DNA from: Candidatus Sulfotelmatobacter sp.
GTDB lineage: Bacteria; Methylomirabilota; Methylomirabilia; Methylomirabilales; DASPOZ01
DNA length: 38,942 nucleotides
NCBI GenBank assembly: GCA_035625755.1
Contig: DASPOZ010000101.1
Location: 1 to 38,942, forward strand
Reading direction: 5' to 3'
The notes beneath the pieces were generated by a model. It was not told the DNA's origin. It saw only the letters and a list, made by a program, of their open reading frames with translations, and ran no database searches. The position numbers and the translations under genes are program-made. Below, piece after piece: positions 7,897 through 19,494 of this stretch (positions are counted from its first letter, which is position 1; every line of letters starts with the position of its first letter).

Positions 7897-7975
7897 TCCC
7901 TGCCTCACTTCCTCAACGGCGGGCCCGTCCGTGCGGCGCCCCCGTGGTTGTGGGAAGGCCCCAAAGGCCTCCCCC

Positions 7976-8281
7976 CTACAATCCCGTCTCGCTCCGGCGC
8001 GGCCGCAGGGCCCGGGCCTTCTGACGGCGCAGGCGGCGGGCCGCCTCCCGGACCTTCCGCCGCCGTCGCTCACCGGGCTTCTCATACCGGCTCTTCCGCG
8101 TAAAATCGCGGAGGATGCCATCCCGCATCACCAGGCGCTTGAACGCGCGCAGCGCGCTCTCCACGCCCCGTTCGTCCACGGCCACCTCGAGGGCGCGCCC
8201 CCGGGGACCCCCCGACCCGTGGGGGCGATCCCCCGACCCGTGGGGACGATCCCCTGAGCCCGCGCGGAGCGGCTCGGCCAT
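7976..8281 (-). CDS. rpsU: 30S ribosomal protein S21 with N-terminal repeat extension
   Basis: Core VESALRAFKRLVMRDGILRDF..YEKPGERRRRK. ATG 8281 preceded by GGGAAGGGGAGGGAAGGC. About 25 extra N-terminal residues include the GDRPHGS tandem repeat. Confidence 0.85.
   Translation of the reverse strand: MAEPLRAGSGDRPHGSGDRPHGSGGPRGRALEVAVDERGVESALRAFKRLVMRDGILRDFTRKSRYEKPGERRRRKVREAARRLRRQKARALRPRRSETGL
8209..8250 (-). repeat. Two in-frame 21-nt tandem repeats (with a partial third) inside the rpsU 5' end
   Basis: cccccgacccgtgggggcgat / cccccgacccgtggggacgat on the plus strand, encoding GDRPHGS twice. Confidence 0.9.
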
Positions 8282-8310
8282 GCCTTCCCTCCCCTTCCCG
8301 ACAACGGGTT

Positions 8311-8351
8311 CAAAAACAACGCGCCGCGAGGCCCCTGGTCCTTGCGGCGCG
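8311..8351 (-). promoter_or_regulatory. Terminator-like hairpin in the moaD-like/rpsU intergenic leader
   Basis: Minus strand reads CGCGCCGC-(16 nt loop)-GCGGCGCG followed by TTGTTTTTG. It lies between the predicted rpsU promoter and the rpsU RBS. Confidence 0.45.
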
Positions 8352-8400
8352 GCGTGTTCGGAGTGCCAGGTGAAAACGTCGTCTGCCAGAACCGAAGTGA

Positions 8401-8429
8401 AGTGTAGAGGGTTTCTCCTCGCCTGTCAA
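8401..8429 (-). promoter_or_regulatory. Sigma70-like promoter for rpsU (TTGACA-17-TACACT)
   Basis: Hexamers and the 17-nt spacer read directly from the minus strand. The -35 hexamer contains the stop codon (8426-8428) of the upstream moaD-like ORF. Confidence 0.5.
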
Positions 8430-8818
8430 TGGCCGGGCCGGAATCCGGCAGCAACCCCTCCAGCCGGCCCCCGGGCCACGGCGGGGAGCCGGCCGGCCGC
8501 GCCAGCCCCGCCAGCGCTGGCCGGGACGCCACCGCCCTTGCCTGCACCTCCCGCAATGGCGGGAACGATGCTCACCTGGTCCCCCGCCTTCAGCGGCGTC
8601 TGGGCCCCTTGCAGGAACCGGATGTCCTCCTCGTTGACGTAGATGTTGATGAAGCGGCGGAGCTGGCCATGATCGTCACAGAGACGGGCGCGCAGCCCCG
8701 TGTACTGGCCCTCCAGCGCCTCGATCAACTCCGCCACGGATGCAGCGGAGGCCTTCACCTCACCCTGCCCCCCGGTGAGGCCCCGCAGCGGCGTCGGGAT
8801 CCGCACGGTCACGCTCAT
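8426..8818 (-). CDS. MoaD/ThiS/CysO-family sulfur-carrier (Ubl) protein with a 39-aa extension after the Gly-Gly
   Basis: ATG 8818 with AGGGAGGAAAAG upstream. A 91-aa beta-grasp-like domain ends in VPAIAGG (GG codons 8551-8546). The frame continues as [39 protein letters not shown]. Confidence 0.8.
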
Positions 8819-8874
8819 CTTTTCCTCCCTAGTCCAGGGTCCCGAGTCCAAAGTCCCGAGTCGCGGGCGCGGCA

Positions 8875-10125
8875 TCAACGGGCGGCGGCCAGGACGCCGG
8901 CGGCGGCCAGCGCGCCGTCGAACGACTTGAGGGTGGGCTTGATCTGCAGGGGGGCCGGCAGCGCATCCACCACGGCCTCCTGGGTCTTCAGCCCGTGCCC
9001 CGTGATGCACACGACGAGGCTCTCGTCCCGGGGGATGCGCCCCTGCGCGATGAGGCGCATGGCCGCGGCCAGCGTCACCCCGCCGGCCGTCTCGGCGTAG
9101 ATCCCCTCGGTGGCGGCCAGCAGCTTCATGGCCTCCACGATCTCGGCGTCACTGGCGTGCTCGCCCCAGCCTCCGCTGTCCTTCACCACCTTGTAGGCGT
9201 AGTAGCCGTCGGCCGGGTTGCCGATGGCCAGCGACTTGGCGATGGTCCGGGGCCGCACGGGCCGGATGGTCTCCGAGCCTTCCTTGACCGAATTCACGAT
9301 GGGGCCGCACCCCTCCGCCTGGGCGACGTACATCCGGGTGGGCACGTCCGCGATCAGTTCCAGGGTGCGGAGCTCCTGCAGCCCCTTCCAGATCTTGGTG
9401 ATCAGCGACCCGCCGGCGGCGGGCACCACGATATGCTGCGGGGCGCGCCAGCCGAGCTGCTCGGCGATCTCGTAGCCGAAGGTCTTGGACCCCTCGGCGT
9501 AGTAGGGGCGGATGTTGATGTTCACGAAGGCCCAGCCGTACTTGTCCGCCACCTCGCTGCAGAGCCGATTCACCTCGTCGTAGTTGCCTTCCACCGCCAC
9601 CACGGAAGGGTTGTAGATGGACGTCCCCAGTACCTTGCCCTGCTCCAGGTCCGCCGGGATGAAGACGAAGCTCTTTATCCCGGCCTCGGCGGCGTGGGCC
9701 GCCACGGAGTTCGCCAGGTTGCCGGTGGAGGCGCAGGCCACCACCTGAAATCCCATCTCCAGGGCCCGGGTCACCGCCACGGCCACCACGCGGTCCTTGA
9801 AGGAGAGGGTCGGATGATTGACCGTGTCGTTCTTGAGGTAGAGTTCCCGCACGCCCAGGGCACGGGCCAGGTTTCGGGCCCGGATCAGGGGGGTGAAGCC
9901 GCATGCCCGGCCCACCGCCGCCTCGCCCTCGATGGGCAGCAGGGGGCGATAGCGCCAGATGCTGGGTGGCCCCGCCTCGACGGATCGGCGCGAGACCAGG
10001 CGCCGCAGGGCCTCGTAATCGTAGGCCACCTCCAGCGGCCCGAAGCAGAACTCGCAGACGTGGAGCGCTTTGGCCGGGTACGGCCGCCCACACTCGCGGC
10101 ACTTCAACCCCTTGATCGTTCCCAT
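8875..10125 (-). CDS. Threonine-synthase-family PLP enzyme (ThrC-like; predicted homocysteine-forming MetM-like role)
   Basis: N-terminal zinc ribbon CRECG...CEFC. PLP-lysine motif TLSFKDR. ATG 10125 (alternative ATG 10143). Lies in the SAM-riboswitch operon. Confidence 0.85.
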
Positions 10126-10187
10126 CCTGGATCCTACTCCCATCCCGCGGCCCCCGGCGAGGGGGGCCAGCGGCCTCGCCCCGGGGA

Positions 10188-10421
10188 TTATCCCCGGAGC
10201 TCCTCCACCCGGATCCCCAGCCCCGAGAGGAACGCGATGCCGCGCGCCACCTCGGCCGGATCGCCCTTGAGTTTCACCGTAACCTCGCCCGAGGCCTCGG
10301 TCACCCGGGCCTTGCGGATGTTAGGGACGATCTCGAATTCCTTGCAGAGGCGGTACAGCACCGGCTCCGTGACCAGGGAAGACGGGTAGGTCAGCTTCAC
10401 CGTGCGCGTGACTGCAGCCAT
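10188..10421 (-). CDS. NIL-domain protein (77 aa)
   Basis: ATG 10421 with GGGAGG 7 nt upstream. VKLTYPSSLVTEPVLYRLCKEFEIVPNIRKARV resembles the NIL domain of the MetN C-terminus. The tracked start at 10460 lies inside the riboswitch terminator and is rejected. Confidence 0.75.
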   Translation of the reverse strand: MAAVTRTVKLTYPSSLVTEPVLYRLCKEFEIVPNIRKARVTEASGEVTVKLKGDPAEVARGIAFLSGLGIRVEELRG

Positions 10422-10482: not shown

Positions 10483-10500
10483 GCATTGACCCTTATCTTG

Positions 10501-10632
10501 CCTCATCTCTCATCCCGCCGGTACAGCACTACGAAGCGGGATGTAGGAGTTGGCACCGGACCCCCGCCATGCTGGGCGGGGCGGTTGCCGTGGCGTCGTC
10601 GGGCCAGTCCCTCAGCCACTCTGGATGAGTTT
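10501..10632 (-). promoter_or_regulatory. SAM-I (S-box) riboswitch aptamer
   Basis: Minus strand reads CTCATCCAGAGTGGCTGAGGGACTGGCCCGACGACGCCACGGCAACC...GGTGCCAACTCC...GGGATGAGAGATGAG. The P1 strands and the conserved GAGGGA / GGCCC / GCAACC / GGTGCCAA blocks are all present. Confidence 0.9.
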
Positions 10633-15596: not shown

Positions 15597-15751
15597 CAGG
15601 CTGCTGAAAAACCTTCTCTTGCCCAGGCTGCTCAAAAAGGTCCAGATGCAAGGCGGCGCGCGATGCGCCGAGTGAGGCGTACTTCTGGTACGCCGCAGCG
15701 AATGCGCGAGCGCGCCAACGCCGCAGATGGGCCTTTTTCAGCAGCCTGCTA
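15597..15751 (+). repeat. Palindromic repeat, copy 3 (short form)
   Basis: CAGGCTGCTGAAAAACC-TTCTCTTGCC-CAGGCTGCTCAAAAAGGTCCAGATGCAAGGCGGCGCGCGATGCG...GCGCGAGCGCGCCAACGCCGCAGATGGGCCTTTTTCAGCAGCCTG-CTA. Confidence 0.9.
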
Positions 15752-16597
15752 CGGCTTTTCCACGGGCACGCCCACCAGGCTCCCGTACTCGGTCCAGGAT
15801 CCGTCGTAGTTGCGGACCCTGGGATAGCCCAGGAGCTCCTTCAGGGCGAACCATGTGAGCGAGGAGCGCTCACCGATCCGGCAGTAGGCCACCACCTCCT
15901 TGTCGGGCGTGACCCCCTTGCCCGCGTAGAGGCTCTTGAGCTCGTCCGCCGACTTGAAGGTGCCGTCGGGGCGGCAGTTCTCGCCCCAGGGGATGTTCGC
16001 CGCGCCGGGCACGTGGCCGCCCCGCTGCGCCCCCTCCTGGGGCAGGTTCTCGGGGGCCAGCAATTCGCCGCTGAACTCGCGGGGCGAGCGCACATCCACC
16101 AAGGCGCGGTTCCGCCTGAAGGCCGTCTCCACCACCAGGTCCCGGGCGGCGCGGACGGAAGGATCGGGGTCCTTGGCGCTGTAGCGCACGGGGGCGATCT
16201 TGGTGGCCTCCTTGGTCAGCGCGCGGCCCTCGTCGATCCATTTCTTCCGGCCGCCGTTCATGATCTGCGCGTCGGAGTGGCCGTAATGCTTCAGCAGCCA
16301 GTAGGCGTACGTGGCGAACCAGTTATTGTTATCCCCGTAGAGGATGACCTTGGTATTGGTGCCCACCCCCGCCTGGCCCAGGAGCTGCTCGATCTTGGCC
16401 TTGCTGGCGATATCGCGCACGGGGTGCTCCTCCAGGTCCCGGAACCAGTTCAAGGCTACCGCCCCGGGGATGTGGCCCTGCTCGAAGGCGGCGGTATCCA
16501 CGGAGACCTCGATGACGCGAAGGTTCGGGTCCTTCAGATGGTCCGCCACCCATGCCGTCTCCACGAGCACCTGAGGGTTCGCGTACGCCGTCGCCAT
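15749..16597 (-). CDS. Thiosulfate/3-mercaptopyruvate sulfurtransferase (tandem rhodanese)
   Basis: ATG 16597 with AAGGGAGGGGG upstream. Two rhodanese domains. Active-site loop CRIGERSS. Confidence 0.9.
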   Translation of the reverse strand: MATAYANPQVLVETAWVADHLKDPNLRVIEVSVDTAAFEQGHIPGAVALNWFRDLEEHPVRDIASKAKIEQLLGQAGVGTNTKVILYGDNNNWFATYAYWLLKHYGHSDAQIMNGGRKKWIDEGRALTKEATKIAPVRYSAKDPDPSVRAARDLVVETAFRRNRALVDVRSPREFSGELLAPENLPQEGAQRGGHVPGAANIPWGENCRPDGTFKSADELKSLYAGKGVTPDKEVVAYCRIGERSSLTWFALKELLGYPRVRNYDGSWTEYGSLVGVPVEKP

Positions 16598-16641
16598 GGC
16601 CCCCTCCCTTCGTCCGGTCGGCTCGGACCGGACCACCGAAT

Positions 16642-16855: not shown

Positions 16856-17344
16856 TCAGGATCCGTCCGCCCCCGCGATGGGGGCCTCCAGGAATTCCCC
16901 GGCCGCCTCATCCCAGCGGAACGCCCTCACCTCGCGGACCGCCGCCGCGTCCAGGGCCACGATCAGGTAGGCCGTGTCGGGGTAGACCGGCTCGCCGTCG
17001 AACAGGGCGCGGTCCCTGTCCTCCTGGGAGAAGTAGGCTGCGTGGTCCGGGTGCGAGTGGTAGAACGCGGCCACGGCCCACCCGTCCCGGTCCACCTCGT
17101 TGAGCACGTCCAGCAGCTCCTTGCCGTCCATGTAGTAGGCGATGCGGGCGACCCGGGGATACCGCTCCGGGTCCCGCGCGTGCAGCTGGTCCTGGATGTT
17201 GCGCACGCGGCGCACCGCCTCGGCGCCGTCCCGCCGCAGGATCAGGCCGCAGCACTCGTCCGGATAGGTCTCGCGGGCGTGCGCCGCCACGGCCTCCAGC
17301 GTGGAGGTCCGGAATCGCACCGCCGTCTGCGCGCCTGTGGTCAT
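16856..17344 (-). CDS. JAMM/MPN+ metallopeptidase (Mec+/CysO-hydrolase-like)
   Basis: Catalytic Glu in PDECCG. JAMM motif HSHPDHAAYFSQED (H-x-H-x7-S-x2-D). An alternative GTG start at 17362 overlaps the cysM stop. Confidence 0.85.
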   Translation of the reverse strand: MTTGAQTAVRFRTSTLEAVAAHARETYPDECCGLILRRDGAEAVRRVRNIQDQLHARDPERYPRVARIAYYMDGKELLDVLNEVDRDGWAVAAFYHSHPDHAAYFSQEDRDRALFDGEPVYPDTAYLIVALDAAAVREVRAFRWDEAAGEFLEAPIAGADGS

Positions 17345-17355
17345 GTCCCGTCCCG

Positions 17356-18288
17356 CTACCACCAGATGTGACTGGCCACGTCCTCCGGGATGTCCGCGGT
17401 GTCCTTCTGCCAGACGCCGAGGCTCACGTACTTCCAGCCGCCGTCCGCCAGCAGGACCACGATGTTGCCCCGATCCATGCGGCGGGCCACCCGCAGGGCG
17501 CAGTGCAAGGCCGCGCCGGACGAGACGCCGGCGAAGATCCCCTCCCGGCGCATCAGATCCTTGGTGGCGGCGAACGCGCAGCGTGAGTCCACGAGGATCT
17601 TGCCGTCCAGGAGGCCCAGGTCCAGGATGGGCGGAATGAACCCCTCCTCCAGGCTCCGAAGCCCCTGCACCGCGTCCCCCGGGTGCGGCTCCGCGGCGAT
17701 GACCTTCACCCGCGGGTTATGCTCCTTGAGCCGACGGCCCACGCCCATGAGCGTGCCGCCGGTCCCCAGCCCTGCGATGAAGGCGTCTACCTCCGGCATA
17801 TCCCGCACGATCTCGGCCCCGGTGGTCTCGTAGTGGGCCCGGGGGTTGGCCGGGTTGCCATACTGGTACAGCAGGCAGAAGCGGGGGTCCTCCGCCATCT
17901 TCTGGGCCAGCTCGATGGAGCCGTTGGTCCCCCGGGCCGGGTCCGAGAAAACGATCTCGGCCCCATAGAGGTCCAAGAGCTGCCGCCGTTCCACCGTGAC
18001 GTTCTCGGGCACCACCACCGTGATCCGGTAGCCTCTCCGCCGGGCGATCATGGCCAGGGCGATCCCCGTGTTGCCGCTGGTGGGCTCCAGGATGGTCTTC
18101 TCCCGCGTGAGCTCGCCCGACCGCTCGGCGGCCTCGATCATGGACCTGGCGATGCGGTCCTTGAGGCTGCCCGTGGGGTTGTTCCCCTCGAGCTTGGCGA
18201 AGAGACGCACCCCGGGCTTGGGGCTGAACCGCGGCAGCTCCACCAGCGGGGTGTTCCCGACGGCCTCCAGGATGTCCCGAGCGATCAT
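17356..18288 (-). CDS. cysM: Cysteine synthase B-type PLP enzyme (CysM-like)
   Basis: NPTGSLKDR PLP-lysine motif and TSGNTG. GAGGGAACGGC precedes ATG 18288. Confidence 0.9.
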   Translation of the reverse strand: MIARDILEAVGNTPLVELPRFSPKPGVRLFAKLEGNNPTGSLKDRIARSMIEAAERSGELTREKTILEPTSGNTGIALAMIARRRGYRITVVVPENVTVERRQLLDLYGAEIVFSDPARGTNGSIELAQKMAEDPRFCLLYQYGNPANPRAHYETTGAEIVRDMPEVDAFIAGLGTGGTLMGVGRRLKEHNPRVKVIAAEPHPGDAVQGLRSLEEGFIPPILDLGLLDGKILVDSRCAFAATKDLMRREGIFAGVSSGAALHCALRVARRMDRGNIVVLLADGGWKYVSLGVWQKDTADIPEDVASHIWW

Positions 18289-18396: not shown

Positions 18397-19494
18397 CTAC
18401 CCCTCCGGGACCCCGGCCGCCGCCGGGATGCCACAGAACTGGTTGTAGTCGATCAGGTCCGTGATGGTGGGCCGGTCGCCGCAGACCGGACAGTTCGGAT
18501 CTCGGCGGAGCTTTACCTGGCGGAACTCCATCCCCAGGGCATCGAAGAACAGCAGCCGGCCGGCCAGGGATTCCCCTAGGCCCAGGAGGAGTTTGATGGT
18601 CTCGATCCCCTGGATGGAGGCGATGATGCCGCACAGCACGCCCAGCACGCCGGCCTCCGCGCAGCTGGGTACCAGGCCGGCCGGCGGCGGCGCCGGGTAG
18701 AGGCACCGATAGCAGCCCAGCCCCGGCTTGAACACGGTGACCTGTCCCTCGAACTTGAAGATGCTGCCGTCCACCAGGGGCTTCTGCAGGAACACCGCGG
18801 CATCGTTTGCCAGGTAGCGGGTGGGGAAGTTGTCCGATCCGTTCACGATCACGTCGTACTCGGCGAAGATCTGCTTCGCGTTCGCCGAGGACAGCTGCGT
18901 GGCGTAGGGCACCACCTTCACGTCCGGGTTCATGTCCGCAATGGTGTCGATGGCCGAATCCACCTTGGGGCGCCCCACGTCGTGGGTGTGGTGGAGGATC
19001 TGGCGCTGGAGGTTGCTGAGGTCCACCTTGTCGAAGTCCACGATGCCCAGGGTGCCCACGCCGGCCGCCGCCAGGTAGAGGGCCGCCGGAGACCCCAGGC
19101 CCCCCGCGCCGATGATCAGCACCCGGCTGCCCAGCAGCCTCTTCTGGCCGCGCCCGCCCACCTCCGGCAGGATGATGTGGCGGCTATAGCGCCGGATCTG
19201 CTCCTCGGTCATGGCGCCCGCGCCGCCGGCCAGGGCGGGGATCAGGGCCACCTCGTCGCCGTCCCGCACGGTGGCCTCGAGGCCGCCCAACTCCTCCACG
19301 GCCAGGTTGTTCACGTAGACGTTCACGTGGTGCAGGATCTCGCCGCGTCCGTCCAGCACGCGGCCGCGCAGGCCGGGGTAGCGCCCCTCCAGTTCGCGCA
19401 GGACGCCGGCCACCGTGGCCTGCCCCGCCTCCACCCGGGCCTGATTGTCCGTGAATTGGCGGTAGGGCGTCGGAATGTACACCGTGATACTCAT
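18397..19494 (-). CDS. Translational fusion of a MoaD/CysO-like Ubl domain (aa 1-91, ...ALAGG) with a MoeB/ThiF-type E1 adenylyltransferase (aa 95-365)
   Basis: The reading frame across the junction is GCC GGC GGC GCG GGC GCC ATG ACC, with no stop. E1 part: MTEEQIRRYSRHIIL, GAGGLGSP Rossmann motif, CYRC and CPVC zinc pairs. No C-terminal rhodanese domain. Confidence 0.85.
   Translation of the reverse strand: MSITVYIPTPYRQFTDNQARVEAGQATVAGVLRELEGRYPGLRGRVLDGRGEILHHVNVYVNNLAVEELGGLEATVRDGDEVALIPALAGGAGAMTEEQIRRYSRHIILPEVGGRGQKRLLGSRVLIIGAGGLGSPAALYLAAAGVGTLGIVDFDKVDLSNLQRQILHHTHDVGRPKVDSAIDTIADMNPDVKVVPYATQLSSANAKQIFAEYDVIVNGSDNFPTRYLANDAAVFLQKPLVDGSIFKFEGQVTVFKPGLGCYRCLYPAPPPAGLVPSCAEAGVLGVLCGIIASIQGIETIKLLLGLGESLAGRLLFFDALGMEFRQVKLRRDPNCPVCGDRPTITDLIDYNQFCGIPAAAGVPEG

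Follow-up and report, generated by a model that had tools for sequence, protein, structure and literature searches.

Sulfur carriers of the ThiS/MoaD type are prokaryotic relatives of ubiquitin for which a free Gly-Gly end is essential. The locus analyzed here raises the question why a carrier of this type is encoded with 39 further residues behind its Gly-Gly, and what becomes of these residues. The window, i.e. the whole stretch of 38,942 nucleotides that was analyzed, belongs to a Candidatus Sulfotelmatobacter genome for which the reference genomes compared include no other member of its family. According to our analysis the protein is probably the precursor of a MetO/CysO-type carrier, the tail of which comprises two modules copied from its own end as well as a stretch of read-through of promoter DNA and would be removed after G91. 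The carrier, its tail and the adjoining promoter are arranged as follows:

8426 to 8818, minus strand: open reading frame of the carrier precursor, a ThiS/MoaD protein of the MetO/CysO type with 130 residues followed by TGA.
8546 to 8818, minus strand: beta-grasp domain, residues 1 to 91, ending in motif copy 1, VPAIAGG (nucleotides 8546 to 8566).
8507 to 8545, minus strand: repeat unit 1, residues 92 to 104, with the spacer AGKGGG and motif copy 2, VPASAGG, in which the Gly-Gly is kept.
8468 to 8506, minus strand: repeat unit 2, residues 105 to 117, with the spacer AGAAGR and the decayed motif copy 3, LPAVARG, in which the Gly-Gly is lost.
8429 to 8467, minus strand: distal 13 residues, 118 to 130, reading through into conserved DNA upstream of the promoter.
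8401 to 8429, minus strand: promoter-like site of rpsU, TTGACA-17-TACACT, matching at 10 of 12 positions with 0.0 sites expected in shuffles.

The carrier frame starts with the ATG at 8818, which is preceded by the ribosome-binding site GGGAGG. Pfam ThiS (PF02597) covers residues 5 to 91 with an E-value of 1.3e-17 and 64.5 bits against a cut-off of 22.5. The nearest solved structures are CysO in 3DWG (3DWG_C, E 2e-22) and the carrier in 4N6E (4N6E_B, E 7e-23), aligned over residues 1 to 91, and both of these carriers terminate at the Gly-Gly itself without extra residues. In the AlphaFold model, calculated from a 77-sequence alignment, the beta-grasp fold (residues 1 to 86) reached pLDDT values above 90, and residues 90 to 130 stayed below 50 and were unstructured. 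P86, A87, A89, G90 and G91 are invariant across the 77 homologs. The initial annotation regarded the carrier domain as a paralog of the ubiquitin-like (Ubl) domain of the E1 fusion encoded in the same window. This was confirmed, as the two share 45% identity over residues 1 to 93 (E 3e-22) and the Ubl domain ends with IPALAGG at the matching position. The protein length of 130 residues and the position of the Gly-Gly at residue 91 followed by a tail of 39 residues were borne out as well. With regard to ThiS/MoaD membership, the fold and the Gly-Gly at the domain end are present, and a Gly-Gly as free end of the primary product is absent. The 39 residues after G91 thus point to processing rather than to exclusion from the carrier family. 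Moreover, an assembly frameshift is unlikely because independent assemblies encode the identical frame of 130 residues (P0001 with 97% identity, P0002 with 94%).

The tail had been described as 39 low-complexity Gly/Ala/Pro residues. Its length is correct, but it is not of plain low complexity, since with a period of 13 residues it repeats the C-terminal heptapeptide of the carrier. The repeat unit follows the profile [A/T]-[G/S]-[D/N/E]-G-[G/R]-G then V-P-A-I-A-G-G, and its Gly-rich spacer is predicted to be disordered. In the window, 6 of the 7 third codon positions of copy 2 and only one of its amino acids (I to S) deviate from copy 1, and in copy 3 the Gly-Gly has changed to RG. A 39-nt repeat was not detected by TRF in the DNA of this tail, so that the periodicity is visible at the protein and codon level only. 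On this ground recent slippage was rejected for the window's carrier gene.

The same module was found in many relatives. At least one extra motif, defined by at least 5 of 7 matches to VPAIAGG, is present in 41 of 57 homologs with tails of at least 13 residues. In 39 of these 41 cases it lies at an offset of 6, and successive copies are invariably 13 residues apart, as in the proteins ending with ...VPAIAGG-TGDAGG-VPAIAGG-L (105 aa) and ...VPAIAGG-TREDRG-VPAIAGG-TSDHGD-VPPIAGG-R (118 aa). In an unbiased protein set with 56 tails of at least 13 residues, an exact VPAIAGG was seen in 20, a retained Gly-Gly in 36 and at least 5 of the 7 residues in 39. In this set the domain had a mean pairwise identity of 0.76, copy 1 of 0.985, the spacer of 0.37 and copy 2 of 0.54; the copy-2 motif has decayed in about 30% of the clusters. 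It had been proposed to align orthologs in order to see whether the tail is conserved in length or sequence. This is true for the 13-residue register and the extra motif, kept in 39 of 56 tails, but not for the spacer, the length and the distal part. Tail lengths range from 0 to 50 residues among close relatives. At least one residue follows the Gly-Gly in 110 of 133 orthologous loci, and most reference genomes of the same order have 0 to 2 residues there. When homologs were searched again with the focus on the tail region, only the same Methylomirabilota-type clade was recovered, and among the homologs found in other phyla there was no sign of the tail repeat, the tails being short or NIL-domain fusions.

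The number of modules is variable. Identical carrier domains carry tails of 26 or 39 residues, and the tree requires 37 or more changes of the tail state. We propose that the module of 13 residues, i.e. a Gly-rich spacer of six residues and a copy of VPAIAGG, would have originated from a tandem duplication of the 3' end of the gene, and that the arrays would grow and shrink by unequal crossing-over. In the related locus L193 one more unit is present at the 5' end of the array, and copies 2 and 3 of L193 match copies 1 and 2 of the window in their DNA. Such copies in shifted register read as the signature of unequal crossing-over. A tree of the 91 domain columns, which is poorly resolved, places the tail-bearing proteins in two clades; a single origin of the tail is neither supported nor refuted by this tree.

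Besides, several other variants of carrier ends were observed. In a CysO-type paralog upstream of cysM (L198:309-683, G004:C229) the protein's own end has been duplicated independently, with LPAVAGGRP followed by VPAVAWGRP; the ortholog in a sister genome (L199:430-915, G026:C24) is without a C-terminal duplication. On Planctomycetia-type and other contigs (L043, L050, L053, L129, L140, L161, L167, L175) a Lys-rich linker joins the Gly-Gly of the carrier to a fused NIL domain, resulting in tails of 81 to 96 residues. Carrier and NIL protein of the operon would be made there as one precursor, reminiscent of the fusions of ubiquitin with ribosomal proteins. Furthermore, P0015, P0016 and P0024 (190-192 aa) as well as P0105 (201 aa) contain two whole carrier domains in tandem, both with a Gly-Gly at the end, and thus resemble polyubiquitin in their arrangement.

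We then compared 20 extra motif copies with copy 1 of their own gene. They differ at 8, 3 and 89 of 140 positions at the first, second and third codon position, respectively, and the extra copy of L114 differs at 7 of 7 third positions without a single amino acid change. The following pN/pS values are pooled Nei-Gojobori estimates over orthologs and are rough, as the pairs are non-independent:

Domain: 0.31 with 12 loci, 0.28 with 16 loci.
Copy 1: 0.00 with 12 loci, 0.015 with 16 loci.
Spacer: 1.02 with 12 loci, 0.95 with 16 loci.
Copy 2: 0.08 with 12 loci, 0.32 with 16 loci.

The set of 12 loci was partly picked by eye for visible repeats, and four loci with a decayed-looking copy 2 were added to obtain the set of 16. 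Since the differences are mostly at third positions and pN/pS of copy 2 is 0.08-0.32 compared with about 1 in the spacer, the extra motif is translated and selected in many lineages. Judged by these substitution patterns it is read in the carrier frame, and purifying selection has acted on it during much of the clade's history. It is dispensable, as it has decayed or been lost in other lineages. The window seems to belong to these lineages. Between the window and L196 the domain shows eight synonymous changes and one nonsynonymous change, and the whole tail nine nonsynonymous and two synonymous changes. The window's tail thus evolves about neutrally now and may be functionless; it is probably a largely decaying, disposable version of the module. 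In another pair, L206 and L114, copy 1 and the spacer are identical in DNA and five substitutions fall in three adjacent codons of copy 2 (GCC ATC GCG vs GGC ATG GTC), which may be due to a multi-nucleotide event or to an assembly artefact.

The last 13 residues have a different history. As described in the initial annotation, the TGA of the carrier (8426-8428) lies inside the TTGACA (8424-8429) of the predicted rpsU promoter. The promoter-like site is kept 5' of rpsU in L191, L192, L193, L196 and L197, and in an alignment from the Gly-Gly to rpsU the conservation in L191, L192, L193 and L196 extends over the promoter and about 20 nt on its upstream side (ggattccggcccggccaTTGACA). In L191 an in-frame TGA closes the carrier frame 16 codons before the position of the window's stop, and the DNA of the window's distal 13 codons is untranslated there. 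The carrier frame of L193 ends earlier still: the unit homologous to unit 2 of the window reads AGRRRA-APAAGARG and is directly followed by TAG, with the promoter-proximal DNA lying in a different frame. Because L191 and L193 keep this DNA untranslated, residues 118-130 are read from DNA that is conserved for non-coding reasons. Between the window and L196 these residues show three nonsynonymous and no synonymous changes. In our model, translation in the window lineage would simply run on without an earlier stop until it ends at the TGA inside TTGACA.

The annotation had offered two readings of the tail, a genuine pro-peptide or the loss of an ancestral stop with translation into intergenic DNA. 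Each of them holds for one part. The former applies to residues 92-117, made of 13-residue modules that are widespread in the clade and the motif half of which is maintained by purifying selection in many relatives, but not to residues 118-130; the latter applies to residues 118-130, the DNA of which is untranslated in L191 and L193, but not to the translated and selected repeat units of residues 92-117. By their register and codon pattern residues 92-117 are best regarded as a genuine translated pro-sequence and not as intergenic read-through. That the whole tail arose by a lost stop is accordingly extremely unlikely. The homology of the last 13 codons to untranslated DNA in L191 and L193 is what this explanation has in its favour, but dozens of relatives with other genes downstream (e.g. 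L195 and L194, without rpsU) have translated, selected units that align in register with residues 92-117. For residues 92-117 it was refuted by the in-register repeats and the codon-position pattern.

Some further features were noted around rpsU and the carrier start. The rpsU gene (7976-8281) encodes an N-terminal extension of ribosomal protein S21 with two in-frame 21-nt repeats (GDRPHGS twice; window 8209-8250, minus strand); L191 and L197 lack this repeat and L193 has a variant of it, i.e. close relatives differ in the copy number. Behind the promoter, the leader of rpsU contains a GC-rich hairpin (window 8312-8351, minus strand; GCCGCGCCGC...GCGGCGCG) followed by UUGUUUUU, and this hairpin is conserved in relatives. 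This hairpin may serve as the end of the metM/metO operon and in rpsU attenuation. The folding energy of the leader was no better than that of shuffles (z = 0.32), and a terminator-like hairpin is present in the centroid structure. A search of 7900-8900 against Rfam gave only a sub-threshold, implausible snoRNA match. Between the ThrC-like gene and the ribosome-binding site of the carrier (window 8826-8862) there is a 14-nt tandem repeat with a 7-nt sub-period, TCCCGAGTCCAAAG x 2.6.

What the carrier may be used for can be judged from the genes in its vicinity. The following features of the window are relevant:

10500 to 10631, minus strand: SAM-I riboswitch (Rfam RF00162, 79.2 bits against a gathering score of 44.4), 5' of the NIL, ThrC-like and carrier genes.
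10188 to 10421, minus strand: NIL-domain protein (Pfam NIL), first gene of the riboswitch operon, called as 77 aa in relatives.
8875 to 10143, minus strand: ThrC-family PLP enzyme with an N-terminal zinc ribbon (Pfam PALP; NCBIfam thrC, 287 bits), candidate for a MetM-like homocysteine synthase.
16856 to 17362, minus strand: Mec-type JAMM/Prok-JAB metalloprotease (Pfam Prok-JAB, E 2.5e-19), the presumed remover of the tail.
18397 to 19494, minus strand: Ubl-E1 (ThiS-ThiF) fusion, best ThiF-family match in the genome and presumed activating enzyme.

The ThrC-like gene is located directly upstream of the carrier. A higher-scoring thrC is found on another contig, hence the ThrC-like gene is not the housekeeping thrC. 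Further upstream on the same strand there are a second NIL gene and genes for a YeiH-like membrane protein, sulfite reductase, tandem rhodanese, the Prok-JAB protein, a CysM-like enzyme and the Ubl-E1 fusion. The metal-site motif of the JAMM protein, E...HSHx7SxxD, is intact, and it is the only strong JAB match in the genome. On another contig of the same genome (G000:C187:3008-4042) a weaker second ThiF-family match lies beside a weak JAB match, and this pair may represent a separate Ubl/E1/JAB system. Close relatives have kept the order NIL-NIL-ThrC-like-carrier-rpsU-RRM, and a NIL gene accompanies the ThrC-like/carrier pair in every relative locus examined. In L195 the JAMM, cysM-like, Ubl-E1 and rhodanese genes are also found together, and the carrier tail is paired with a JAMM there as well. 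The features known from MetM/MetO systems are thus present, namely an adjacent ThrC-family gene that is not the housekeeping one, a SAM-I riboswitch, and a Mec-type JAMM and a ThiF-family E1 in the genome. Gene context and the descriptions of MetM/MetO suggest that the operon encodes a MetM/MetO-type pathway to homocysteine and hence methionine.

In the mechanism that we propose the carrier would serve a SAM-regulated, thiocarboxylate-dependent synthesis of homocysteine by the adjacent ThrC-like (MetM-like) enzyme. In CysO-type systems a JAMM protease hydrolyses the amide between the carrier's Gly-Gly and the amino acid in each catalytic cycle. From the chemistry of the family we infer that a JAMM which hydrolyses carrier-GG-homocysteine in every cycle would also remove anything else that follows the Gly-Gly. 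The Mec-type JAMM (16856-17362) would cut the whole tail off after G91. The free carboxylate of G91 would be needed for adenylation by the E1, and the Ubl-E1 fusion together with the rhodanese (15749-16636) would adenylate and thiocarboxylate this residue. Removal by the nearby JAMM appears to be the most likely fate of the tail. A general removal of residues behind the Gly-Gly would explain the extra residues in 110 of 133 loci as well as the fusions of the Gly-Gly to NIL domains or to a second carrier. The earlier claim that activity depends on C-terminal processing would likewise fit the family, with residues behind the Gly-Gly at these loci and an intact JAMM in the window. It counts against our explanation that the JAMM gene, about 8 kb from the carrier, belongs to the cysteine branch and not to the riboswitch operon, and that the signal of selection on the extra motif is uneven.

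Several other explanations were weighed against this one. If the JAMM clips after G91, the 3' end of the gene would be unconstrained and the repeats might be functionless products of slippage throughout the clade. This is possible but not likely. Tail lengths of 0 to 50 residues among close relatives, the decay of about 30% of the copy-2 motifs, the excess of nonsynonymous changes in the window's tail compared with L196 (9 to 2) and a spacer pN/pS of about 1 would all be expected of such junk. However, the amino acids of the extra motif were kept while the third positions came near saturation (89/140) and the first and second positions remained almost unchanged (11/280), and pN/pS of copy 2 is well below that of the adjoining spacer. 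Recent slippage, moreover, predicts near-identical DNA copies, but TRF found no 39-nt repeat, and between copies of one gene as many as 7 of 7 third positions are different. At the other extreme, the tail might be retained as a disordered docking arm, e.g. for the NIL proteins or the ThrC-like enzyme, with a carrier that acts without a free C-terminal thiocarboxylate. The fusion of the carrier through its Gly-Gly to a NIL domain in other phyla and the NIL gene that always lies beside the pair could be seen in this light. We nevertheless consider it very improbable, as the PAxAGG end is invariant like that of proven thiocarboxylate carriers, the E1, rhodanese and JAMM genes are present, and the tail beyond copy 2 is not conserved.

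The extra motif itself allows for a further alternative, in which a distal Gly-Gly (G104 in the window, the last intact copy in relatives) is the terminus that is used, with trimming there or stepwise and a long-armed carrier as the result. In known carrier complexes it is the motif residues that lie in the tail-binding clefts of the partner enzymes, i.e. of the E1, the JAMM and the PLP enzyme, and it is on the motif and not on the spacer that conservation falls. The Gly-rich, presumably disordered spacer would suit a long arm, and 10 of 36 tail-bearing proteins end one residue past the last extra Gly-Gly, which is also the commonest ending in relatives with a single copy. However, genes with a decayed motif have their stop at the unchanged position, so an ending of this kind is not specific, and we dropped 'GG plus one residue, then stop' as a sign of a working distal end. 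Copy 1 is invariant everywhere, which fits G91 as the working end, and in the window copy 3 has lost its Gly-Gly and copy 2 carries the change of I to S. In addition, known E1 and JAMM enzymes dock the beta-grasp domain at a fixed distance from the terminus, as in the MoeB-MoaD and JAMM-SAMP complexes. A distal terminus as the used one is therefore quite improbable.

Processing after G91 remains our preferred explanation. For the extra motif, our best guess is that the tail clefts of JAMM, E1 and PLP enzyme which bind copy 1 would also accept this motif, which would act either as an alternative terminus or as a second site for processing. That the extra VPAIAGG modules are in fact working JAMM sites or activatable termini, and that their copy number tunes the timing of activation, the reach to E1, rhodanese and PLP enzyme or the number of uses, is a more speculative proposal which we regard as unlikely. 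If true, working extra termini would give ubiquitin-like sulfur carriers a novel design principle, with arrays that expand and contract in evolution as minisatellites do. The retention of the first extra copy beside a drifting spacer in many Methylomirabilota-type lineages would point to an undescribed contact of a second pseudo-terminus with the JAMM, the E1 or the MetM-like enzyme. For annotation two rules could be derived: a ThrC-like gene together with carrier and NIL genes behind a SAM riboswitch would mark a methionine operon, and carriers with a tail behind the Gly-Gly would have to be read as precursors and not as errors.

A thiocarboxylate route to homocysteine in Streptomyces albulus was reportedly described by Hasebe and colleagues in AEM in 2024. 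In the literature that outlines this system, MetM, MetO, Mec and MoeZ convert O-phosphohomoserine into homocysteine and a SAM riboswitch is present (GapMind 2026, PMC13759103; PMC12172450). Mec is reported there to be necessary for the maturation of MetO (GapMind 2026, PMC13759103). Compared by description, the locus studied here is similar in having a MoaD/ThiS-type carrier beside a ThrC-family PLP enzyme, an upstream SAM riboswitch, a Mec-type JAMM and an E1 of the MoeZ type. In contrast to S. albulus, the window's carrier bears a tail of 39 residues with repeats of its own end, and the operon includes a NIL-domain gene. Besides, the E1 of the window has an N-terminal Ubl domain and no rhodanese domain, unlike that of S. 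albulus. The same PAxAGG end is found in the CysO-CysM-Mec+/MoeZ system of Mycobacterium tuberculosis (3DWG/3DWM) and in the carrier of A. orientalis (4N6E). However, these two carriers end at the Gly-Gly, and their partner is CysM and the product cysteine.

Precursors matured by JAMM-type proteases have been described for HcyS-Ala with HcyD in Wolinella, for QbsE-CF with QbsD in Pseudomonas and for MoaD-MoaE fusions, which are cut by DRJAMM or in MoaX (PMC8832034, PMC4326299). In all of these, residues or domains behind the Gly-Gly need to be removed by a JAMM-type metalloprotease before activation, as we infer for the window's carrier. Their extensions consist of one or two residues or of a functional partner domain, whereas that of the window's carrier is made of repeats of its own motif. 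In the literature searched, including Iyer et al. 2006 (PMC1779556), we found no description of tandem copies of a carrier's own C-terminal motif or of selection on them. Eukaryotic polyubiquitin and the bacterial polyUbl proteins (Iyer et al. 2006, PMC1779556) are similar in that they have head-to-tail repeats, several Gly-Gly sites per product and a cap after the last Gly-Gly. In contrast to polyubiquitin, however, the carrier repeats the tail module of 13 residues only and not the beta-grasp domain. Taken together, the tail of the carrier would fit the known scheme of JAMM maturation, and what appears to set it apart is a cap built from the carrier's own recognition heptapeptide.
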